Assembly: GCA_039798825.1 (NCBI GenBank) | Contig: JBDKFI010000001.1 | Location: forward strand, 1-39,785 | From: Candidatus Parcubacteria bacterium | Lineage (GTDB): Bacteria > Patescibacteriota > Minisyncoccia > Phycocordibacterales > UBA5272 | Direction of reading: 5' to 3' | DNA length: 39,785 nt | In this document: positions 4,010 through 24,828 of the stretch, piece by piece | How positions within the stretch are numbered: position 1 is the stretch's first letter | Layout of the letters: every line of letters starts with the position of its first letter | The notes under the pieces: model-generated | Told to the model about the DNA's origin: nothing | Database searches by the model: none | The model's input: the letters and a program-made list of their open reading frames with translations, nothing else | Made by a program: the position numbers and the translations under genes

Positions 4010-4096
4010 TGGTGCGCCGGGCTGGATTTGAACCAGCGAAGCCCGAAGGGCGACAGATTTACAGTCTGTTGTGATTGACCACTCCACCACCGACGC
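4010..4096 (-). tRNA. tRNA-Tyr (anticodon GTA), long variable arm, CCA encoded
   Basis: The reverse complement folds as a cloverleaf. Acceptor GCGTCGG/CCGGCGC, anticodon stem ACAGA/TCTGT with loop CTGTAAA, variable arm CGCCCTTCGGGC.., T arm GCTGG-TTCAAAT-CCAGC, then A-CCA. Confidence 0.9.
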
Positions 4097-4107
4097 ATGT
4101 AGACACT

Positions 4108-4116
4108 ATCCTACCA
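4108..4116 (-). promoter_or_regulatory. extended -10 box TGGTAGGAT upstream of tRNA-Tyr/folD
   Basis: Reverse complement of 4108-4116 is TGGTAGGAT, 11 nt before the mature tRNA 5' end. Confidence 0.5.
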
Positions 4117-4142
4117 CAAAATCAAAAACCTGTGAATTCACA

Positions 4143-4151
4143 TGGTACACT
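4143..4151 (+). promoter_or_regulatory. extended -10 box TGGTACACT, 7 nt before the msrA ATG (leaderless)
   Basis: TGG at 4143-4145, TACACT at 4146-4151, 7-nt spacer tttcatt, ATG at 4159. There is no SD. Confidence 0.55.
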
Positions 4152-4158
4152 TTTCATT

Positions 4159-4698
4159 ATGATTAGATCACTCATACTTGCAGGCGGTTGTTTCTGGTGC
4201 GTGGAGAATGACCTCCGCGAAGCGCCAGGTGTCGTGTCGGTAACGTCCGGATATTCAGGTGGTGAGTCAACCGACCCGACATACGAAGATCACAGAGGAC
4301 ATCGAGAGGTGGTACTTGTTGAGTATGACGATACAACAACCTCGTATAAAACATTGCTACAATTTTTCATCGATCATATTGATCCAACTGACACGGGCGG
4401 ACAGTTTGCTGATCGAGGAGAAAGCTACAGAACTGCGATCTACTACGAAACTGAGGAAGAAAAGAACATTGCAGAGGGTGTACTGGAAGAATTAGATAGA
4501 AGTGGTGTTTACGAACAATCTCACGCAGTCGATCTTCTACCGAGGAAACAGTTCTATCAAGCAGAGGAGTACCATCAGAAGTACGCAGAAAAGAACCCTT
4601 CACATTACGCAACGTATAGAACTGGAAGTGGTCGAGAAGAGTTTGTGAATCGTACCTGTCAGATTCGCGAAGAAAAGCACATCATCTGGAGTAAATAA
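4159..4698 (+). CDS. msrA: peptide-methionine (S)-S-oxide reductase MsrA
   Basis: 179 aa with GGCFWCVE at the N-terminus (the GCFWG-type active site), then GYSGG and EYHQKY motifs. The start at 4159 avoids overlap with the tRNA and fits the -10 spacing. Confidence 0.9.
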   Translation: MIRSLILAGGCFWCVENDLREAPGVVSVTSGYSGGESTDPTYEDHRGHREVVLVEYDDTTTSYKTLLQFFIDHIDPTDTGGQFADRGESYRTAIYYETEEEKNIAEGVLEELDRSGVYEQSHAVDLLPRKQFYQAEEYHQKYAEKNPSHYATYRTGSGREEFVNRTCQIREEKHIIWSK

Positions 4699-4704
4699 TC
4701 ATCT

Positions 4705-5088
4705 ATGAATATCGAAGAACGTAAAAAAGAATTATCGGACGAAGAAAAACATGTGCTCTTTAATGGTGGTACAGAAGCGCCTTTTACGGGTGAACTTTTA
4801 CATGAGCATAGAAAGGGAAACTTTATGTGTAAGGTGTGTGGTACGCCACTTTTTTCTTCGGACACTAAATTTGATTCAGGTACAGGGTGGCCATCATTTG
4901 ATCAAGCCCTTCCAGGGGCTGTTGAATATGTCGAAGATGCCACGCTTGGCATGGTTCGCACTGAAGTGAGGTGTGCAACATGTCACGCACATCTAGGTCA
5001 TGTTTTTGACGACGGTCCAGGAACAACAGGTAAACGATACTGCATGAACTCAGTGTGCATGGAATTCGCAGAAGATACAGCTGTATAG
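4705..5088 (+). CDS. msrB: peptide-methionine (R)-S-oxide reductase MsrB
   Basis: 127 aa SelR domain with CKVCGTPLF and CATCHAHLGHVFDDGP zinc CxxC pairs, GWPSF, and the RYCMNS catalytic Cys. Confidence 0.92.
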   Translation: MNIEERKKELSDEEKHVLFNGGTEAPFTGELLHEHRKGNFMCKVCGTPLFSSDTKFDSGTGWPSFDQALPGAVEYVEDATLGMVRTEVRCATCHAHLGHVFDDGPGTTGKRYCMNSVCMEFAEDTAV

Positions 5089-7962: not shown

Positions 7963-10860
7963 ATGGAACCCTACATCCCTAAAAACATCGAAGGTAAGTG
8001 GCAGAAGATTTGGTCAGATACAAAGCTCTACGAGATGAACGTACACTCCGATAAAGAGAAGCTCTATGTTCTCGATATGTTTCCGTACCCTTCAGGAGAG
8101 GGGCTTCATGTTGGACATCCGAAGGGATACATCGCTACTGATATCTATTCTCGTATGAAGAAGATGTCAGGCTATGAAGTGCTTCACCCTATGGGGTGGG
8201 ATGCGTTTGGTCTTCCTGCAGAACAGTTTGCACTTAAAAACAAAGTTCACCCGCGCGTCGCTGTAGAGCGAAACATTGCGCGATTTAAGGAGCAGCTTTC
8301 GATTATTGGATTTAATTATGATTGGACCAAGGAGGTCAACACCACGGACCCTGAGTTTTACAAGTGGACGCAATGGATTTTTAAACAGATGTGGAAGAAG
8401 GGACTTGCCTACGAGAGTTATGAGCCGATTAATTGGTGTCCATCGTGCAAAACAGGTCTTGCAAACGAAGATCTAGAAGGGGACGCGTGTGAGCGTTGTG
8501 GTACCAAGGTGGAAAAGAAGCCACTTCGTCAGTGGGTGCTTAAGATTACGGATTATGCAGACCGTATGATTGCTGATCTCGACAAACTTGATTGGCCAGA
8601 AGGAGTCAAACTTGCGCAGAAGAATTGGATTGGAAAAAGTGAAGGTTCCGAAATCAGGTTTAATCTATGTGTCACAGGAGTAGCAGATGGAACGTATTTT
8701 GTTGATGTGTTCACGACGCGCGCAGATACGCTCTTGGGCGCTACGTTTATCGCTATTTCTGCAGAGCTTGCACAAACGTGGATATCGATGGGCTGGAAAC
8801 CTTCTGAAAAGATCACGTCATTTATACAGACGACACTTGAAGACGAGAAAAACAGAAGCGTTGATTTCAAAACAGAGCTTTTAAAGGATGGCGTTGATAC
8901 AGAAGTGTTGGCGATTAATCCACTTACTCAAGAAAAGATTCCTGTGTATGTTGCTAATTATGTTATTTCTGGCTATGGCACAGGTGCACTCATGGGTGTT
9001 CCGGCTCACGACGAGCGTGACTACGCATTTGCAAAGCAGCACAATCTTCCTGTTAAGGAAGTTGTTCGTCCCTATGTGATCGATCATGTGAATGTGCCCC
9101 GTCCTGATAAGCCAACTAAGGTGCGACGCAACGTGCATGCAATCGTGTATGATCCTGCGACAGATACATATCTCATTCTTCGCAACTCAGTTCATCACTG
9201 GGACACGGTAGTGATTGGAGGTGTCGAAGAAGGTGAAGATCTAGTTGAGGCTGCGAAGCGTGAGCTACGAGAAGAAACCGGATATACCGACGTCACCTTT
9301 AAACGAATTTTGGGCAATCCTGTACAAGCTGGTTACTTTGCGCCGCACAAGGATGAAAACAGAGTCGCTATCGCCTCTGCCGTGTACTTCGAACTTGCGA
9401 GCGATGCTCGAGTGGAAATTCCAACTGATGGCGAAAATGAAGGAAATGAAGTTCTGTGGGTAGACGCATCAGAATTTGTTCCAGGAAAAATGATTAATTC
9501 AGAACTTGGACATTGGCTTGTGCGTCTGAAAGTACAAGACGATATCCCTTACACAGGAGAAGGTATTCTTGTTAATTCAGGAGCGTATGACAACCTTGCA
9601 TCCGAAGAAGCGAGAAAGAAAATAACAGAAGATGCAAAGGGAAAGCTGCTCTCACAATACCGTCTTAAGGATTGGGTGTTTGCGCGTCAGCGATATTGGG
9701 GTGAGCCATTTCCTATTGTGTTTGATGAGCATCATGTTGCCCACGTAGTTGCAGACAGTGAACTTCCTGTGAAGCTTCCTCAAGTTGAAGCATATGAACC
9801 AACTGGCACAGGTGAGAGCCCGCTTGCTGCTATTTCGGAATGGGTGAACGTGACGGGGTTCTTAAACGAAGATGGGGAATTTGTGAGTTGCGATCCATCA
9901 GATCCGAAAGCAAAGCATTTTACACGAGAGACAAATACCATGCCCCAATGGGCGGGATCTTCATGGTACTATTTACGCTTTGCGGATCCGAAAAATAATA
10001 CGACACTTATTGATCCTTCCCTTGATAAGAAATGGCAACCGGTTGATGTATATGTCGGTGGAGATCATGCGACACGTCACCTTATCTATGCGCGATTTTG
10101 GCATAAATTTTTGTACGATATCGGTGTCGTGTCCTATGATGAACCATTTAAACGACTTGAGTTCTTAGGATTTATTTTGGCAGAAGATGGACGCAAAATG
10201 AGTAAGCGATTAGGGAATGTCATCAATCCAGACGACGTGGTAGCGATCTACGGTGCAGACACGCTTCGTGTGTATGAAATGTTTATGGCACCGTTTGAAC
10301 AAACAGTTGCATGGGATACAAAAAGTATTGTGGGTGTGGAGCGCTTTTTGGAACGCGTGTGGAAGTTGCAAGCCAAGGTGCGTGATGAAAAAGATAGCTC
10401 AGATGCACTCACAGTACTTCATAAAACGATTAAGAAAGTAGGGGAAGACATCGATGCGTTTAAGTTCAACACCGCTGTTTCTTCAATGATGATTTGTCTG
10501 AATGCAGGAGAGGCTGCTCCGCATGTTTCTTCGTACTGGTACAGCACATTCATCACCCTCCTTGCGCCATTTGCACCACATATCTCAGAAGAGCTTTGGC
10601 ACACACTTGGCGAACGTGGTTCAGTGCACGAGCAGCCCTGGCCTTCATTTGATGAGACGTTACTTGTAGACACTACGGCAACTATTGCAATTCAAATAGG
10701 GGGCAAACTTCGCGAGACTATTACCGTTCCTCGAGATACTGCTGAAATGGGGGTCTTAGACGAGGTAAAAAAGACACAAAGTTACCAGAAGTATGTCGGG
10801 TCAGCGACCCCAAAGAAGGTGATTTTCGTCCCAAATAAGTTGATAAATATAGTGATTTGA
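7963..10860 (+). CDS. leuS: leucyl-tRNA synthetase with an inserted Nudix domain
   Basis: 965 aa with HVGHP (HIGH), KMSKR (KMSKS), CP1 editing motifs TTRADT and GTGALMGVPAHDERD, and RLKDWVFARQRYWGEPFP. Residues ~385-525 carry the Nudix box GGVEEGEDLVEAAKRELREETGY. Confidence 0.95.
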   Translation: MEPYIPKNIEGKWQKIWSDTKLYEMNVHSDKEKLYVLDMFPYPSGEGLHVGHPKGYIATDIYSRMKKMSGYEVLHPMGWDAFGLPAEQFALKNKVHPRVAVERNIARFKEQLSIIGFNYDWTKEVNTTDPEFYKWTQWIFKQMWKKGLAYESYEPINWCPSCKTGLANEDLEGDACERCGTKVEKKPLRQWVLKITDYADRMIADLDKLDWPEGVKLAQKNWIGKSEGSEIRFNLCVTGVADGTYFVDVFTTRADTLLGATFIAISAELAQTWISMGWKPSEKITSFIQTTLEDEKNRSVDFKTELLKDGVDTEVLAINPLTQEKIPVYVANYVISGYGTGALMGVPAHDERDYAFAKQHNLPVKEVVRPYVIDHVNVPRPDKPTKVRRNVHAIVYDPATDTYLILRNSVHHWDTVVIGGVEEGEDLVEAAKRELREETGYTDVTFKRILGNPVQAGYFAPHKDENRVAIASAVYFELASDARVEIPTDGENEGNEVLWVDASEFVPGKMINSELGHWLVRLKVQDDIPYTGEGILVNSGAYDNLASEEARKKITEDAKGKLLSQYRLKDWVFARQRYWGEPFPIVFDEHHVAHVVADSELPVKLPQVEAYEPTGTGESPLAAISEWVNVTGFLNEDGEFVSCDPSDPKAKHFTRETNTMPQWAGSSWYYLRFADPKNNTTLIDPSLDKKWQPVDVYVGGDHATRHLIYARFWHKFLYDIGVVSYDEPFKRLEFLGFILAEDGRKMSKRLGNVINPDDVVAIYGADTLRVYEMFMAPFEQTVAWDTKSIVGVERFLERVWKLQAKVRDEKDSSDALTVLHKTIKKVGEDIDAFKFNTAVSSMMICLNAGEAAPHVSSYWYSTFITLLAPFAPHISEELWHTLGERGSVHEQPWPSFDETLLVDTTATIAIQIGGKLRETITVPRDTAEMGVLDEVKKTQSYQKYVGSATPKKVIFVPNKLINIVI

Positions 10861-12037: not shown

Positions 12038-13534
12038 ATGCAACTTGTTATCGACATTGCTCTCAGTCTTATCTATTTTTGCATCTTTTTACTTGTCTGT
12101 GCATGGGCATGGAGGTTCTGGAAGATGTACATTACGCAGAAACATTTCTCAGGCTTAGATTGGGTAATGCTCGAAATCAAGCTACCTCGAGAGATTTTTA
12201 AATCTCCCTACGCAACAGAAGTTGCTATTTCATCTCTTCTTCAAACTGGAGGTGTAGGAACCTGGTATGCACGAGAAATAAAAGGTGCTATGCCTGTGTT
12301 TGCTTCCCTTGAAATAGCATCAACGGAAGGAATTATCCATTTTTATGTTCGTATTCAGCGTAAATTTAGGCCGCTTGTGGAGTCTAATTTCTATGCACAA
12401 TATCCAGGCATTGAGATTACCGAAGCGCAGGATTATACAAGCGTGCTTCAGTATCACCATTTAACAAAAGATGTCGCGATGTGGGGAGAGTCCTACAAAC
12501 TCGACGCTTCATGGGAGCCTTGGAATTGGGAGAAAGGTGAGCGGTATGTTGACCCTAAAGATAGCAGTAAAAAGTATTCAATGAAGGCAGACTTTTTGCC
12601 TATTAAGACCTATGTGGACTATGGTTTGGATAAAGATCCAAAAGAAGAGTTTAAAATAGAGCCACTTGCTCCACTTCTTGAAACGATGGGGTCGCTTGGT
12701 AAAGGTGAGCATCTATGGTATCAAGTCCTTCTTCAATCAGAAGCCCTCTATAACGGCACCAAGATGCCAAAGATGTATCACAATGAAGTCACACATGAGG
12801 CGATGAGTTTGTCTAAAATGGTGGAGGAATTTAAAAAGTCCATTCGAGTCGAAGGGTTTACTCCTGCTGGCCAAATGATTACAGAAAAGATCGACATTGA
12901 CGAAAATGGCAATCCAGTTCCTAAGAAGGTGCTTAACGAAGAACCGATTGTGAAGACGAAAAAGGAGATGGATTTGAGCACAGACGATAAAGACAAACTT
13001 GAGTCGATTAACAAGAAGCTTGCTAAACCGATTGCTTCTGCCATCATACGACTCATGTATGTTGTCGATAAAAACAAAGCCTCGTTTAATCCAGCACTAA
13101 TACAAAACATACTCGCTTTCCCAAAACCATTTGAAGGAAGGTTTAATAAACTCACCATGGGTAAAACAAGTGATCCGTATGAGTACCCATGGGAGAACTT
13201 TCGCAATCGTCGTGTACCGTGGAGGTCTGAGGAGTTCTTTGAGGCGTATGTTGAGCGGGAAGGATTCTTTCCACATATAGAGGGTCGCGATTCTCTCGAC
13301 AAACTTGAAGATACTTTCTTCTGGGGATTCAGTATGAAAACACGAAAGACATGGCGTATGCTCTTTGAGGCCATTATGTTTCCATTCCATCACCCACATG
13401 CGGACGAAATCACCGCTCTTAACATGGAAGAGGTTGCAACCATTTGGCATCTTCCTGGTGCTATTATTACTACACCGACACTTCCTCGAATTGATAGTGC
13501 GAAAGCTGTTGCGCCGGTTAACCTCCCACAGTAG
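12038..13534 (+). CDS. conserved-looking hypothetical protein, N-terminal membrane anchor
   Basis: 498 aa with one N-terminal TM helix followed by a WVMLEIKLPREIFKSPYATEVAISSLLQ segment. No nucleotide-binding motif was seen. It ends 5 nt before mltG. Confidence 0.7.
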   Translation: MQLVIDIALSLIYFCIFLLVCAWAWRFWKMYITQKHFSGLDWVMLEIKLPREIFKSPYATEVAISSLLQTGGVGTWYAREIKGAMPVFASLEIASTEGIIHFYVRIQRKFRPLVESNFYAQYPGIEITEAQDYTSVLQYHHLTKDVAMWGESYKLDASWEPWNWEKGERYVDPKDSSKKYSMKADFLPIKTYVDYGLDKDPKEEFKIEPLAPLLETMGSLGKGEHLWYQVLLQSEALYNGTKMPKMYHNEVTHEAMSLSKMVEEFKKSIRVEGFTPAGQMITEKIDIDENGNPVPKKVLNEEPIVKTKKEMDLSTDDKDKLESINKKLAKPIASAIIRLMYVVDKNKASFNPALIQNILAFPKPFEGRFNKLTMGKTSDPYEYPWENFRNRRVPWRSEEFFEAYVEREGFFPHIEGRDSLDKLEDTFFWGFSMKTRKTWRMLFEAIMFPFHHPHADEITALNMEEVATIWHLPGAIITTPTLPRIDSAKAVAPVNLPQ

Positions 13535-17044: not shown

Positions 17045-17473
17045 ATGGCAATGTACTCCCGAGATGATCTGGTTGTCCTTCTTAAGGAAGCTAATTTGCG
17101 CGTGACAGACCACCGTCTTTTGGTGCTCGAAACTGTTGCAAAAGTAAAGCAACCAGCTACCGTGTATGAATTGGTAGAAACTCTCCGTAAAAAAGAAAAC
17201 ATCGATCAAGCAACCGTCTATCGTAATCTCTCCTCGCTCCACGAAGCAGGTCTTCTTCGGAGGCTTGATTTTAACCATGGCCATGCACACTATGAACTTG
17301 AAACAGGTCGTGCATCTCATCAGCTTGTATGTGGCAACTGTGAGACGATAGAAAAGATAGAGGGTATCTCGATTGATGACGTGGTAAAGAAAATGCTCAA
17401 GAAGAGTAAGAAATTTAAACACACAACGACACATTCTATGGAGATCTACGGTCTCTGCAAATCGTGCGCATAA
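17045..17473 (+). CDS. Fur-family metalloregulator (Zur or PerR type, not resolved)
   Basis: 142 aa with a winged helix (VTDHRLLVLE..ATVYRNLSSLHEAGLL), HGHAHYEL, and two CxxC pairs (CGNC, CKSC). Confidence 0.88.
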   Translation: MAMYSRDDLVVLLKEANLRVTDHRLLVLETVAKVKQPATVYELVETLRKKENIDQATVYRNLSSLHEAGLLRRLDFNHGHAHYELETGRASHQLVCGNCETIEKIEGISIDDVVKKMLKKSKKFKHTTTHSMEIYGLCKSCA

Positions 17474-17478
17474 ATCAT

Positions 17479-17949
17479 ATGATACACATAGGCGATGAAG
17501 CACCACTGTTTTCACTTCCTGATCAAGATGGAGTTATCCATACTCTTTCTCAGTATCAAGGAAAGAAGGTGTTGCTGTATTTTTATCCAAAGGATGACAC
17601 ACCTGGATGTACTACCGAAGCATGTACGTTTCGTGATGGGTATGATGAGTTTGTAAAGATGGGACTAGTCATACTTGGTGTAAGTAAAGACTCAGTGAAA
17701 AGTCACAAGAAGTTTGCAGAAAAGTTTTCGCTCCCATTTCCACTTCTCTCAGATGAGTCGGGGGATGTTATTAAACAGTATGGATCGTGGGGAAAGAAAA
17801 AGTTTATGGGGCGGGAGTACGAAGGGATTCTGCGAAACAGCTTTCTTATTGATGAAAAGGGGAAGGTTGCGAAAGTGTATGAATCGGTAAAGACAGCAAC
17901 GCATGCGAACGATGTGCGTACGGATACTCGTGCATACGTGAGGGTGTGA
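17479..17949 (+). CDS. bcp: thiol peroxidase / peroxiredoxin Bcp
   Basis: 156 aa. GDEAPLFSLPDQDG is followed by YFYPKDDTPGCTTEAC. ATG 17479 lies 5 nt after the Fur-family stop codon. Confidence 0.9.
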   Translation: MIHIGDEAPLFSLPDQDGVIHTLSQYQGKKVLLYFYPKDDTPGCTTEACTFRDGYDEFVKMGLVILGVSKDSVKSHKKFAEKFSLPFPLLSDESGDVIKQYGSWGKKKFMGREYEGILRNSFLIDEKGKVAKVYESVKTATHANDVRTDTRAYVRV

Positions 17950-19426: not shown

Positions 19427-20155
19427 CTACTTTCCGCTTTCTTTATCAAATAGTCGGTCGATAAAACCAAAATATGCATCTTTCCCTTTCTCCTTTCCTG
19501 CGCATTCAACTGCAGCAGCGTAGGGGAGTGCTTGTGGGTGAATTTGTGTGAGGGGAAAGTGTCTGAATGCAAATCCAACACGATTTTGGTAATCGTTCAT
19601 GACAGAGGTAATGGTAGGATGAAAACGAATGCAGTACGGACACTGTATGTCGGCGTATTCCAGAACCATGACATCACCCTCTTTTCCTTTGACAAGTTCG
19701 TCGTCTTTAATCTGTGATCCGGTAAAGGGAGAGGTTTCTGCTTTTCCGGAAAGTGCCTGGTCAAGTGCCGCACGTACAAAGCTTTCTGTCTGAGCTCCTT
19801 CTATTTTTGCAACTGTCGCATAGGTGGAACCCTTTTTCACAAGGATAAACGTCGTAGGTGTACCAGTGACACCAGCTTGCGTTCCGTCAGTAAATTCAGC
19901 ATTGATGGCTTCCATCGTCTCATTTGAGGTGAGACACTGCTCCCATGAGTTACCTTTCAATTTTAATTCCTTAGCAACCTCTTTTACAAAATCCCTCACC
20001 TCATCCGTTACTGGTCGAATGATGTATCCATATGAGACGATGCTAAGCGCCACAATGCCTGATCCGATAAGTATTGCATAGGGTGTGGTGAGCGTGAAGC
20101 GCTGCAGGGGAGATACTACTCTTTGAAACAAGGTTCTTATTTTAGACATATTCAT
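19427..20155 (-). CDS. membrane-anchored DsbA-like thiol:disulfide oxidoreductase (permuted motif order)
   Basis: 242 aa with a TM anchor and a CPYC active site in VLEYADIQCPYCIRFHP. The cis-Pro loop GVTGTPTTFI lies N-terminal to the CxxC. Confidence 0.8.
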   Translation of the reverse strand: MNMSKIRTLFQRVVSPLQRFTLTTPYAILIGSGIVALSIVSYGYIIRPVTDEVRDFVKEVAKELKLKGNSWEQCLTSNETMEAINAEFTDGTQAGVTGTPTTFILVKKGSTYATVAKIEGAQTESFVRAALDQALSGKAETSPFTGSQIKDDELVKGKEGDVMVLEYADIQCPYCIRFHPTITSVMNDYQNRVGFAFRHFPLTQIHPQALPYAAAVECAGKEKGKDAYFGFIDRLFDKESGK

Positions 20156-22455: not shown

Positions 22456-22950
22456 ATGTCTCAAATTCTCACCATTCTCTCATCTGTAGGATTCAATTGG
22501 CATGTTGCGCTTGCCAATTTTGTGAACTTCTTGATTATTTTATTCATACTCAATAAGTTCTTTTTCGGCAAACTTGGGAAAACCATTACTTCTCGCAAAG
22601 AGGCGATAGAGAAGGGTCTTTCTCAGGCAGCTGATGCAGAAAAAGCTCTCATGAGTGCTGAGGAAGAGAAGAAAGAGATCATTCACGCTGCCAAGAAAGA
22701 AGGACATGTGATTGTAACAGAAGCACAAACCCAAGCAAAGGCGCTTGCTTCTTCTATCACCTCCGAAGCAGAGAAAGAAAGAGAAGAGCGTATGCGCATT
22801 CTGAAAGAGAAAGAGGCGGACCTTCAAGCGAAAGTTGAAAAGGATTTTGCACAGCAAGCGCCACGTATTGTTGCGAACCTGTATGCTCAAACGCTTAAAA
22901 AGAATCTCTCAGAACAAGATAATAATGAGCTTATCGCAAGCATGAAGTAA
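22456..22950 (+). CDS. atpF: F0F1 ATP synthase subunit b
   Basis: 164 aa with one N-terminal TM helix followed by a long charged helix (EAIEKGLSQAADAEKAL..). The call also rests on its position in the operon. Confidence 0.85.
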   Translation: MSQILTILSSVGFNWHVALANFVNFLIILFILNKFFFGKLGKTITSRKEAIEKGLSQAADAEKALMSAEEEKKEIIHAAKKEGHVIVTEAQTQAKALASSITSEAEKEREERMRILKEKEADLQAKVEKDFAQQAPRIVANLYAQTLKKNLSEQDNNELIASMK

Positions 22951-22952
22951 GT

Positions 22953-23303
22953 ATGACTCTCTCTAGAAAGATCGCACACACCGTTATAGAACAAGAAGTT
23001 GGAAGTGAGACACTTCTTGCGACACTTTCCAAGTACAACTTAGAGTCTTTACTCCCAAGTATTGTAGCTGAGATGAAAAAGCTTGTACGTATGGAGGATG
23101 GAAGTGCAGCGCTTCATGTCGAGTCGCCATTTCCTCTCGATGAGAGAGCGTTAGCACACATTGTGTCTCTAGCGGAAGCACAAGGTGCACCTATTATCAC
23201 ATCACACAACGAAGAACTTCTCGCCGGTTTCAAGGCTCGTTATAAAGGAATGTTGTACGATGGGTCTGCCGAACGAATCGTACACGCACTTACAAGAAAC
23301 TAG
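22953..23303 (+). CDS. atpH: F0F1 ATP synthase subunit delta (OSCP), unusually short
   Basis: 116 aa. The C-terminus LLAGFKARYKGMLYDGSAERIVHAL matches the delta C-terminal LIGG..V..G....DGS motif, and the gene sits between atpF and atpA. Confidence 0.65.
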   Translation: MTLSRKIAHTVIEQEVGSETLLATLSKYNLESLLPSIVAEMKKLVRMEDGSAALHVESPFPLDERALAHIVSLAEAQGAPIITSHNEELLAGFKARYKGMLYDGSAERIVHALTRN

Positions 23304-23331
23304 AAACAGGAAACTAACAACCATTACAATC

Positions 23332-24828
23332 ATGTCAGTAGAAAAAATAATTAAAGATCTAGAACAGAAAATTGCAACACTCTCTACAGAGGTTGGTACA
23401 AGCGAAATCGGAACAGTGATCTCTGTTTCTGACGGTATCGCGCGTATTTCAGGTCTTGCAACGTGCGCAAGTATGGAAGAACTCCGTTTTGCTTCTGGTG
23501 CAACGGGTCTGGCACTTAATCTCGAATCTGACATGATTGGTGCCGTGATTGTGGCCGGAGGAGACACTGTTCGCGAAGGCGAAGAGGTATCTCGCACAGG
23601 CCGCGTGCTCTCGATTCCTGTTGGAGACGCACTGCTTGGTCGTGTGGTCAACCCGCTCATGAATCCGCTAGATGGCGAACCACTCTCTTCTCTTACGGGA
23701 ATTGAACTTGTGGAAAAGATTGCTCCAGGTGTGATGGAACGTGAACCGGTAAACGTTCCTATGCAAACAGGAGTCAAAGCAATTGATGCGATGATTCCTG
23801 TTGGACGCGGACAACGAGAACTCATCATCGGCGATAGACAAACAGGAAAGACAACAATCGCAATCGATACCATCATCAACCAAAAAGGAACTGGTGTGAT
23901 CTGCGTGTACGTTGCTATCGGTCAGAAGGAGTCAAAGATCGCGCAAATTGTCGAGAAACTTAAAGAAGCAGGAGCACTCCCGTATACAGTTGTGGTGCTC
24001 GCTGGTGCGTCACACTCCGCTGCACTTTCGTATCTCGCGCCGTATGCAGGAACCGCCGTTGCTGAATATTTTATGAATCAAAAGAAAGATGTACTCGTCG
24101 TGTACGATGATCTTTCAAAGCATGCGGTTGCGTATCGTGAAATGTCATTGCTCCTTAAACGACCACCAGGACGTGAGGCATACCCAGGAGATGTCTTCTA
24201 TCTCCACTCACGACTTCTCGAGCGTTCCTGCCGCAGAAATGAGGCTTCTGGAGGGGGTTCTATCACTGCGCTTCCTATTATCGAAACACAAGCAGGAGAC
24301 GTGTCAGCATATATTCCAACAAACGTTATTTCTATCACTGACGGACAGATTTTCCTCGATGCAAACTTGTTCTACAAAGGTATGCGACCAGCGATTGATG
24401 TTGGGCTTTCGGTGTCGCGTGTGGGGTCTGCAGCACAGACAAAGGCGATGAAGAAAAATGCGGGTAAAATGAAACTCGCCATGGCGCAGTATCGTGAACT
24501 TGAAAGCTTCGCACAGTTTGACTCAGATCTTGACCAAGATACAAAGCGTACTATCGAGCGAGGAAAGAGAACGCAAGAAATCTTAAAGCAAGGGAATGGT
24601 GCACCACTTCGTACAGGACTTCAAGTTGCATCTGTGTATGCAGTAAACAATGGTTTCCTTGATTCTGTACAAGTCACAGATGTGAGTGTGTGGGAAAAAG
24701 CAATGCACGCATATATGACATCATCAGGTAAAGACATCGTGGAAGCGGTAGAAAAGGATTGGAATGATGACATTGAGAGCAAGCTTAAAGGTGCACTTGA
24801 GTCATTCGTTCATACGCACTCGCAATAA
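23332..24828 (+). CDS. atpA: F0F1 ATP synthase subunit alpha
   Basis: 498 aa from MSVEKIIKDLEQ. Walker A is GDRQTGKTTIAID. The upstream part of the track ORF overlaps atpH. Confidence 0.95.
   Translation: MSVEKIIKDLEQKIATLSTEVGTSEIGTVISVSDGIARISGLATCASMEELRFASGATGLALNLESDMIGAVIVAGGDTVREGEEVSRTGRVLSIPVGDALLGRVVNPLMNPLDGEPLSSLTGIELVEKIAPGVMEREPVNVPMQTGVKAIDAMIPVGRGQRELIIGDRQTGKTTIAIDTIINQKGTGVICVYVAIGQKESKIAQIVEKLKEAGALPYTVVVLAGASHSAALSYLAPYAGTAVAEYFMNQKKDVLVVYDDLSKHAVAYREMSLLLKRPPGREAYPGDVFYLHSRLLERSCRRNEASGGGSITALPIIETQAGDVSAYIPTNVISITDGQIFLDANLFYKGMRPAIDVGLSVSRVGSAAQTKAMKKNAGKMKLAMAQYRELESFAQFDSDLDQDTKRTIERGKRTQEILKQGNGAPLRTGLQVASVYAVNNGFLDSVQVTDVSVWEKAMHAYMTSSGKDIVEAVEKDWNDDIESKLKGALESFVHTHSQ

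Follow-up and report, generated by a model that had tools for sequence, protein, structure and literature searches.

The stretch of DNA analysed here (39,785 nucleotides, positions 1 to 39,785 of contig JBDKFI010000001.1; referred to as the window) belongs to the Candidatus Parcubacteria metagenome-assembled genome (MAG) GCA_039798825.1. Its leuS gene encodes a bacterial-type leucyl-tRNA synthetase (LeuRS) of 965 amino acids (aa) in which a domain of the Nudix hydrolase family is embedded within the editing domain, CP1. The protein is deposited at NCBI as MEN9337697.1 (100% match; cluster P0009), where it is annotated as 'hypothetical protein RIQ41_11' despite its clear LeuRS identity. Comparison with the family model TIGR00396 (leuS_bact) gave 914.8 bits against a cut-off of 548.4, with the match split into two stretches by the insert, which may be why the protein was named as hypothetical. 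The case illustrates how annotation can break down for an otherwise recognisable enzyme. The features of the locus are given in Table 1.

Table 1. Features of the leuS gene, its product and a nearby HIT-family gene (positions in the window)
Feature	Residues	Position	Strand	Basis
leuS, 965-aa bacterial-type leucyl-tRNA synthetase with embedded Nudix domain		7963-10860	+	Open reading frame (ORF) list
HIGH signature HVGH, synthetic site	49-52	8107-8118	+	Alignment of 85 LeuRS
CP1 editing domain, N-terminal three quarters	220-371	8620-9075	+	PF13603
T-rich motif TTRADT	251-256	8713-8730	+	T252 invariant (85 sequences)
Editing-site AHD with catalytic Asp	348-350	9004-9012	+	A348, H349, D350 invariant (85 sequences)
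Inserted module, ~157 residues	372-528	9076-9546	+	Alignment with insert-free relatives P0031/P0034/P0039
Nudix domain proper	388-508	9124-9486	+	PF00293, E 3.5e-14, 53.4 bits, cut-off 21.1
Nudix box GGVEEGEDLVEAAKRELREETGY, metal-binding catalytic motif	419-441	9217-9285	+	Strict GX5EX7REUXEEXGU match
Post-box segment Y458-F459-A-P-H-K463, candidate base-stacking/phosphate-binding residues	458-463	9334-9351	+	Conservation and NUDT2 alignment
CP1 C-terminal quarter and return strand, YTGEGILVNSG...YRLKDWVFARQ	529-575	9547-9687	+	Aligns to T. thermophilus LeuRS 377 onward
KMSKS-type signature KMSKR	745-749	10195-10209	+	Alignment of 85 LeuRS
HIT-family protein, 127 aa		5149-5532	+	PF01230, DcpS_C; 2.4 kb upstream of leuS

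Pfam analysis of the protein identified tRNA-synt_1, tRNA-synt_1_2 (PF13603), NUDIX (PF00293) and Anticodon_1, an architecture that had been anticipated in a first-pass annotation made from the sequence alone. That annotation had described an in-frame Nudix domain inside CP1 of an otherwise canonical LeuRS, and this was confirmed by the Pfam and TIGR00396 matches and by alignment with the LeuRS of Thermus thermophilus (Protein Data Bank (PDB) accession no. 1h3n). The match to the editing domain (E 6.1e-50) covers only positions 1-143 of the 185 of the PF13603 profile. Residues 1-369 align with Thermus 1-363 and residues 530-740 with Thermus 377-579, which leaves approximately 160 residues in the window LeuRS where Thermus has 13. 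The landmarks that had been named (HVGH, KMSKR, TTRADT, GTGALMGVPAHDERD and the Nudix box) were all found in place. Across 85 aligned LeuRS with and without the insert, H49, G51, H52, W571, F573, R575-G580, K745 and K748 are invariant, V50 is conserved in at least 90% and M746, S747 and R749 are nearly invariant. Judged by sequence, the synthetic-site signatures and the editing-site residues of this LeuRS are intact.

The full-length protein was modelled with AlphaFold2 (AF2) at a predicted local distance difference test (pLDDT) score of 87.5 and a predicted template modelling score (pTM) of 0.76; the pLDDT is 88-96 for the greater part of the Nudix domain (aa 381-480) and 79-90 for aa 481-530. 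Foldseek comparison of the synthetase scaffold with the LeuRS of Escherichia coli and T. thermophilus gave target-normalised template modelling (TM) scores of 0.80-0.84. The window LeuRS has the domain order of these canonical bacterial enzymes (PDB 4aq7, 1h3n, 2bte) and shares with them the HIGH and KMSKS signatures, the ZN1 cysteines, the C-terminal domain and a CP1 bearing the T-rich and AHD motifs. It differs from the Thermus enzyme in possessing a 157-aa Nudix module in place of a 13-residue CP1 loop and in lacking the leucine-specific domain.

The absence of the leucine-specific domain was seen from the alignment, where residue 740 corresponds to Thermus 579 and residue 746 to Thermus 638. 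Five residues at window positions 10180-10197 (aa 740-745, AEDGRK) replace approximately 58 of Thermus (580-637). This stretch recalls the GKDG tetrapeptide of the Mycoplasma mobile LeuRS (PMC3643597).

The inserted Nudix module

The borders of the insert were defined using three LeuRS without it (P0031, P0034 and P0039), which are 71-81% identical to that of the window. These have a linker of 5-8 residues between KEV(V/M)xx and (Y/F)TGEG; taking Thermus into account, the module replaces a CP1 loop of 5-13 residues. The insertion point is located approximately 20 residues past the catalytic Asp of AHD, the conserved residue by which the amino group of the substrate is anchored. The extent first proposed for the insert (9115-9537, aa 385-525) falls within the module, which is wider on both sides. 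The module reaches beyond the Pfam domain at either end, with YVIDHVNVPRPDKPTKV as an extension at the N terminus and the helix SELGHWLVRL at the C terminus. The two flanks recur in a free-standing Nudix protein of 168 aa (P0005; 42% identical by BLASTP, 40% in the multiple alignment) as well as at another LeuRS site (locus L029), which suggests that the inserted unit is essentially a whole small gene. The GC content of the insert is 0.46-0.49 against 0.42-0.47 for the flanks of the ORF, and it is in keeping with the initial impression that there is no marked break in composition. A transposon-like insertion was considered and rejected, the borders being without direct repeats or target duplications and the inverted repeats being short and at chance level only. 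An intein origin was also rejected, as the Pfam scans returned no intein family and the flanks do not resemble those of inteins.

A separate Nudix fold had also been predicted for the insert, and the structural models agree with this. AF2 modelling of the module alone (modelled with 23 diverse inserts) gave a pLDDT of 91.6 and a pTM of 0.85. Foldseek comparison of this model with the PDB returned 544 matches at E≤0.001, and all of the 50 best matches listed are Nudix proteins. The matches to Nudix structures have a probability of 1.0, among them 2azw (TM 0.71/0.79), E. coli RppH (~0.65) and an Ap4A hydrolase of Caenorhabditis elegans (0.60/0.70). As modelled, the insert is an independently folding Nudix domain. 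It has the Nudix box, the alpha/beta/alpha fold and an aromatic residue approximately 17 positions after the box in common with free-standing Nudix proteins (1f3y, NUDT2 3u53, RppH 4s2x and 2azw), but it is only 15-25% identical to them, reaches no subfamily threshold and is embedded in another enzyme.

Conservation was assessed among inserts at the same site, identified by a spacing of 220-235 residues between AHD and RQRYWG (76-91 residues where there is no insert). Such inserts occur in 101 of the 120 best LeuRS clusters and are 20-86% identical to that of the window (mean 48%). The box columns among these 101 are G419 (101), E425 (96), R433 (98), E434 (100), E437 (101), E438 (101) and G440 (101). 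Other conserved columns are R388 (95), K463 (98, with Arg in the remaining 3), N466 (90), E491 (88) and W499 (88), while the position of Y458 is occupied by Tyr in 68, Phe in 18 and Gly in 15. That the catalytic columns are those best conserved in such diverged inserts points to selection on catalysis and not to a decaying passenger. The described architecture, together with catalytic competence of the Nudix part, is very probable.

This conservation also bears on the proposal that the insert is a non-catalytic sensor, in which the Nudix fold would bind a nucleotide signal and tune LeuRS allosterically in the manner of NrtR-type regulators. Its location in CP1, a mobile domain whose rotation gates the LeuRS cycle, would suit such a role. 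Sensor-type Nudix domains, however, usually have degenerate boxes, and here all of the catalytic Glu and Arg residues are 95-100% conserved, making a sensor the least probable of the explanations considered.

Occurrence and insertion sites among relatives

The 90%-identity cluster of P0009 contains a second member of 965 aa on a separate NCBI contig (11.8 kb), the P0009 sequence is also present in JGI and Logan, and both insert junctions are common to more than 100 diverged homologues. A chimeric assembly was rejected on the basis of this second contig and of the shared junctions. Among the 120 best LeuRS clusters, formed at 90% identity, 112 contain PF00293. When 1.84 billion representatives of clusters formed at 50% identity were searched exhaustively by HMMER with a query spanning both junctions (aa 330-580), at least 120 of them were matched at E≤1e-30, most over flank, Nudix and flank as one stretch. 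A query of aa 340-570 had yielded only eight, mostly fragmentary, matches and suggested that the fusion is rare, a reading overturned by the full-length and exhaustive searches.

The GTDB was also scanned, at one genome per species, with two patterns derived solely from the Nudix part. From the 127 relatives found, 80 loci were kept, and LeuRS segments flank the Nudix domain on the same strand in 79 of these; the remaining locus (L079) encodes a prolyl-tRNA synthetase (ProRS). The hosts of the Nudix-LeuRS are Patescibacteria of the Parcubacteria/Paceibacteria group, with Nomurabacteria, Taylorbacteria, Giovannonibacteria, Vogelbacteria, Uhrbacteria, Parcubacteria and Paceibacterota as the names on their records. 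Some automated submissions are labelled 'Saccharibacteria' or 'Gammaproteobacteria'; these labels are unconfirmed and were not trusted. Two loci gave the impression of a split LeuRS (L001, with LeuRS in three ORFs, and L002, with a coverage of 0.5), which was rejected, as both are frameshift-ridden assemblies in which synteny and sequence run across the breaks. The fusion of Nudix and LeuRS is common in public data and is neither a chimera nor a rarity.

Three Nudix insertion sites were identified in LeuRS when 155 full-length relatives were sorted by sequence landmarks. Site A is the CP1 loop, as in the window LeuRS. Site B is within the catalytic body, between WVNVTGF and RETNTMPQW. Site C precedes CP1 and separates the catalytic N-terminal half from the strand LDWPE..NWIG.SEG, which leads into CP1. 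About 113 of the proteins have an insert at site A only, while nine have two at site C and one at site A, eight have A+B, six C+A, five B only and one two inserts at site A. Eight possess none, and a few further combinations occur, with up to three Nudix modules in one protein.

The B-site domains form a family of their own (66% mutual identity, 26% to A; box GGIEKGQ...ARQEVREETGF), and the first and second copies at site C (C1 and C2) are distinct families. Nudix copies within one LeuRS are 20-38% identical (45% in P0132) compared with 43-90% for copies at the same site in different proteins. Recent intragenic duplication was rejected as the source of the extra copies on this basis, the low identity within proteins indicating that they are old. 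Site A itself is occupied by at least two lineages: some synthetase cores that are 62-64% identical to that of the window carry inserts of 25-30% identity, while others of 56-65% identity carry inserts of 60-69%. In 12 GTDB loci, among them L029, the window-type module (HKDENR motif) is located at site C; that of L029 is 58% identical, and this locus has no A-site insert.

In a rough neighbour-joining tree of the LeuRS cores (no support values), all of the major branches contain the A-site insert. Forms with no insert, or with one at site B only, occupy no fewer than six separate positions within the subclade of the window LeuRS, often as sisters (P0039/P0040, P0088/P0072 and P0031-32/P0035), and relatives without an A-site module often have one at site B. 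This pattern suggests that the A-site Nudix was ancestral and repeatedly lost, sometimes with a B-site Nudix in its place; in terms of sequence it reads as ancestral to a large clade of these LeuRS. A module that has been repeatedly lost, re-sited and multiplied would be beneficial but dispensable for LeuRS itself.

One relative, P0035 (1101 aa), has a B-site Nudix and an insert of approximately 120 residues at the CP1 site (aa about 371-490). The latter gave no match to the local Nudix profile or to any Pfam family and may be either a remnant that has degenerated or a domain of unrelated origin.

Domains other than Nudix have also been added to these synthetases. These include an ASCH domain (P0037), a serine alpha/beta-hydrolase with a GHSLG motif (P0058, 1477 aa, and L033) and a HAD phosphatase with an FDFDG motif (P0117, 1522 aa). 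In a Candidatus Taylorbacteria MAG (L013:3203-8314, PLXZ01000004.1), the reading frame of a giant LeuRS exceeds 1700 aa and includes three Nudix domains, an alpha/beta serine hydrolase and a HAD phosphatase, at three insertion sites.

The ProRS with a Nudix insert is encoded by a Woesearchaeota-labelled MAG (L079:2786-4807, JBFHXM010000039.1). It is of the archaeal type, and its Nudix domain, a member of the same family (43% identical), lies between the anticodon-binding domain and ProRS-C_1. The insert is present in five ProRS clusters (P0274-P0278), while approximately 115 related DPANN ProRS are without it. Among the DPANN ProRS relatives, P0356 and P0379 (716-722 aa) and P0393 (627 aa) have B3_4 (PF03483) or YbaK-type tRNA_edit (PF04073) domains and represent further domain accretion on synthetases in ultra-small archaea.

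These placements bear on the suggestion, made in the first-pass annotation, that the insert is tied to proofreading. The Nudix lobe would then hydrolyse mis-activated aminoacyl-adenylate, providing pre-transfer editing in cis, and its position within the editing domain, some 20 residues after the catalytic Asp, is what favours this. The related modules at sites B and C and in a ProRS are outside CP1, though, and the insert has been lost several times with the editing-site residues retained. Aminoacyl-AMP is also an acyl-phosphate and does not contain the pyrophosphate bond that Nudix enzymes cleave. Furthermore, HIT-family enzymes act on aminoacyl-adenylates and dinucleotides, and the window has a separate gene for one. 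The proposed tie to proofreading is not supported; coupling to editing is very improbable, and the Nudix lobe is probably not part of the editing chemistry.

Candidate substrates and known precedents

The explanation preferred here is that of a normal bifunctional LeuRS carrying an autonomous Nudix lobe that stands outside the editing chemistry and is likeliest to act on compounds of the diadenosine tetraphosphate (Ap4A) or nucleoside diphosphate-X (NDP-X) type; the statement as a whole is given a probability of roughly 55%. An entire small Nudix hydrolase of ~157 aa has been inserted into a surface loop of CP1 of a complete LeuRS, the synthetase part of which would continue to perform ordinary aminoacylation and proofreading. 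The lobe is predicted, from its conserved catalytic residues, to be an autonomous Mg2+-dependent pyrophosphohydrolase. Its likeliest substrates would be of the Ap4A type, either dinucleoside polyphosphates that contain adenine or NDP-X compounds, arising as side products of the adenylate chemistry of the synthetase. Fusion would give 1:1 co-expression and proximity to the source of the substrate.

Synthetases are the main cellular source of Ap4A. As both known hosts of the module are tRNA synthetases, a substrate connected with the chemistry of these enzymes is favoured, and Ap4A-type dinucleotides are the obvious candidates. The best sequence matches of the insert in the PDB are two Ap4A hydrolases, that of lupin (1f3y; E 7e-4 with a single sequence, 1.6e-9 with a profile) and human NUDT2 (3u53). 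These alignments cover mainly the region of the Nudix box, with other Nudix classes close behind. Ap4A hydrolases reportedly have a Tyr 16-18 residues after the Nudix box, an observation that goes back to Dunn and colleagues in 1999. In the window LeuRS, Y458 follows the end of the box (Y441) by 17 residues, aligns with the Tyr of ELNYVA in human NUDT2 and is Tyr or Phe in 86 of the 101 inserts; the near-invariant K463 is close to it. The Tyr of Ap4A hydrolases has been described to stack on adenine, and His32, Lys42 and Lys89 of NUDT2 to be ligands of the P1 phosphate (PMC4734340).

Several observations weigh against this assignment. The similarity of the insert to Ap4A hydrolases lies mostly within the Nudix box. 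The HHW of the window protein aligns with that of NUDT2, but H412 is replaced by Gly, Asn or Lys in most inserts; I418 occupies the position of Lys42 of NUDT2, where no Lys is present; and the spacing from Tyr to Lys is 5 (Y458-K463) as opposed to 7 in NUDT2. No cut-off of an NCBIfam Nudix subfamily was approached, the best scores being ~26-29 bits against 95-400. RppH, NudI, MutT1 and the uncharacterised 2azw are structural neighbours to an equal degree. The added HAD, alpha/beta-hydrolase and ASCH domains, and the setting of P0005 among genes of nucleotide salvage and sanitation, would fit general nucleotide house-cleaning at least as well. LeuRS is not known to be a strong producer of Ap4A. 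An Ap4A-type substrate is thus a tentative assignment, with rather less than an even chance of being right. Regarding the earlier suggestion that the lobe clears Ap4A or adenylate, the first is plausible, with the matches to 1f3y and NUDT2 and the aromatic residue at +17 pointing faintly towards it, while the second is chemically unlikely.

Some of these observations support a house-cleaning enzyme that has hitch-hiked on LeuRS. Here the lobe would be an active sanitation or salvage hydrolase (acting on oxidised or non-canonical nucleoside triphosphates or ADP-ribose) with no mechanistic tie to aminoacylation, and LeuRS would serve only as a constitutively expressed host, with permissive loops on its surface, in a genome that is streamlined. 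HAD, alpha/beta-hydrolase and ASCH domains are likewise hosted by LeuRS of this clade, with up to five extra hydrolase domains in the protein of over 1700 aa. The free-standing homologue P0005 is located among nucleotide-metabolism genes (locus L083: two further Nudix genes and those for HIT, CYTH, dNK, dUTPase and deoxyribosyltransferase), some close relatives lack the insert, and the subfamily models do not single out Ap4A hydrolases. MutT models (TIGR00586/PRK10776) were matched by 5 of 23 inserts at E ~1e-6 to 1e-7, below the cut-off and with that of the window not among them, and MutT-like is the generic label given to such proteins by JGI. An arbitrary host, however, would predict that other hosts exist, and 79 of the 80 nearest genomic relatives are in LeuRS, with the sole other in a ProRS from a different domain of life. 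The three independent LeuRS sites and the apparent replacement of A by B suggest selection for the association itself. The argument from host restriction is not decisive, because the sample is biased to vertical relatives of the query. House-cleaning unconnected with aminoacylation is considered unlikely, at something over one chance in four.

RNA was also considered as a substrate, with an RppH-like lobe beside the tRNA acceptor end stripping tRNALeu or some other RNA of a 5'-pyrophosphate or a cap (NAD, Np4A). The best structural matches include E. coli RppH in many states (TM ~0.65), and the RppH models of NCBIfam were those matched most often, though weakly (21 and 19 of 23 inserts). AvrM14 Nudix effectors, which decap mRNA, are also among the matches. 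Sites A and C lie in or beside CP1, which handles the acceptor end, and an ASCH domain, of an RNA-binding type, is co-inserted in some relatives. All of the RppH matches are, however, far under the curated cut-offs (PRK00714, 23-27 bits against 116-118) and fall short of equivalog level. Site B and the ProRS site are not obviously near the 5' end of the tRNA, and mature tRNAs normally have a 5' monophosphate. A role of this kind is improbable.

Bacterial LeuRS are among the best-studied synthetases and are a drug target, and the accretion of domains on tRNA synthetases is generally regarded as a feature of eukaryotes. No description of a LeuRS-Nudix or synthetase-Nudix architecture was found in full-text searches of PubMed Central (PMC) and bioRxiv, and the LeuRS-Nudix architecture is not described in PMC7824862 or PMC5370408. 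The novelty tentatively raised for the fusion in the first-pass annotation holds in this respect only, as the fusion itself is widespread in public data (at least 120 clusters and 79 GTDB loci). It can also be seen in databases, through precomputed Pfam matches and through the JGI label of one relative, 'leucyl-tRNA synthetase/8-oxo-dGTP pyrophosphatase MutT'. Within the literature searched, the Nudix-LeuRS is unreported rather than unseen.

Among the closest precedents, NadM-Nudix is a bifunctional NMN adenylyltransferase/ADP-ribose pyrophosphatase (PMC7824862). Like the window LeuRS, it combines a HIGH-motif nucleotidyltransferase and an active Nudix domain in one polypeptide (NCBIfam PRK05379, to which the insert has weak matches), but it is an end-to-end fusion with another transferase, whereas here the Nudix is within a domain of a tRNA synthetase. 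An accessory domain on a synthetase is likewise seen in IleRS with a GNAT domain (NCBIfam NF040702), and bacteria of the Candidate Phyla Radiation (CPR) possess B2/OB-fused TyrRS and LysRS (PMC5370408). These additions, and those of eukaryotes, are terminal and mostly non-catalytic, in contrast to an internal hydrolase at three sites and in up to three copies. The Nudix-ProRS of DPANN archaea (L079, P0274-P0278) has a Nudix of the same subfamily (43%, HK(D/N)ENR motif) that is also internal in a tRNA synthetase. It differs in its class II, archaeal host, in its position between the anticodon-binding and C-terminal domains and in its restriction to five clusters. Both parts of the window protein are members of known families; the insertion of a hydrolase into the editing domain, and its occurrence at several sites and in several copies, are not seen in NadM-Nudix or in the terminal fusions.

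A clade of uncultured bacteria thus appears, from the sequences, to have long kept an apparently active nucleotide hydrolase in a proofreading domain, and to have relocated it, increased its copy number and acquired other hydrolases as well. Were Ap4A-type by-products the substrate of the lobe, the protein would be a natural producer-destroyer fusion for an alarmone and would give direct access to the physiological role, long debated, of the Ap4A that synthetases make. Should the link be one of co-expression only, three LeuRS loops have still been mapped as naturally permissive sites for the insertion of whole domains, which is useful in engineering. More broadly, the synthetase-embedded Nudix may represent a recurrently evolved functional coupling in the ultra-small symbionts of the CPR and DPANN groups, in which synthetases, above all LeuRS, serve as scaffolds for the turnover of nucleotide signals or by-products; this is possible but doubtful. 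In that case, Ap4A-type dinucleotides or caps would be broken down where they are made, by one to three active Nudix lobes that are sometimes accompanied by HAD, alpha/beta-hydrolase and ASCH domains, linking translation to alarmone or nucleotide homeostasis, and domain accretion on bacterial and archaeal synthetases would be comparable to that thought typical of eukaryotes.

Other genes in the window

The gene content of the window fits that of a small CPR chromosome, with genes for ClpB, a DUF5671 protein, a Sigma70_r4/HARE-HTH protein, YceG, MnmA, an F-type ATP synthase, SMC, RNase R and TrmD. The gene order DUF5671-leuS-HARE-HTH recurs in the relative L001. Directly downstream of the HARE-HTH gene is an ORF of 498 aa (12038-13534, + strand) that matches no Pfam family at E≤1e-4. 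The ATP synthase operon lacks an ORF of at least 120 aa between the genes of subunit b (22456-22950) and subunit alpha (23185-24828), where that of delta/OSCP is expected. The ORF of the alpha subunit, taken from its first start codon, has approximately 70 residues ahead of its first Pfam domain. The gap at delta/OSCP may be an artefact of start-codon choice, or delta may be small or missing. Genes related to oxidative damage and redox are located at 4075-5088, 17464-17949 and 19427-20155, and encode MsrA, MsrB, an AhpC/TSA peroxiredoxin and a DsbA/thioredoxin-like protein.

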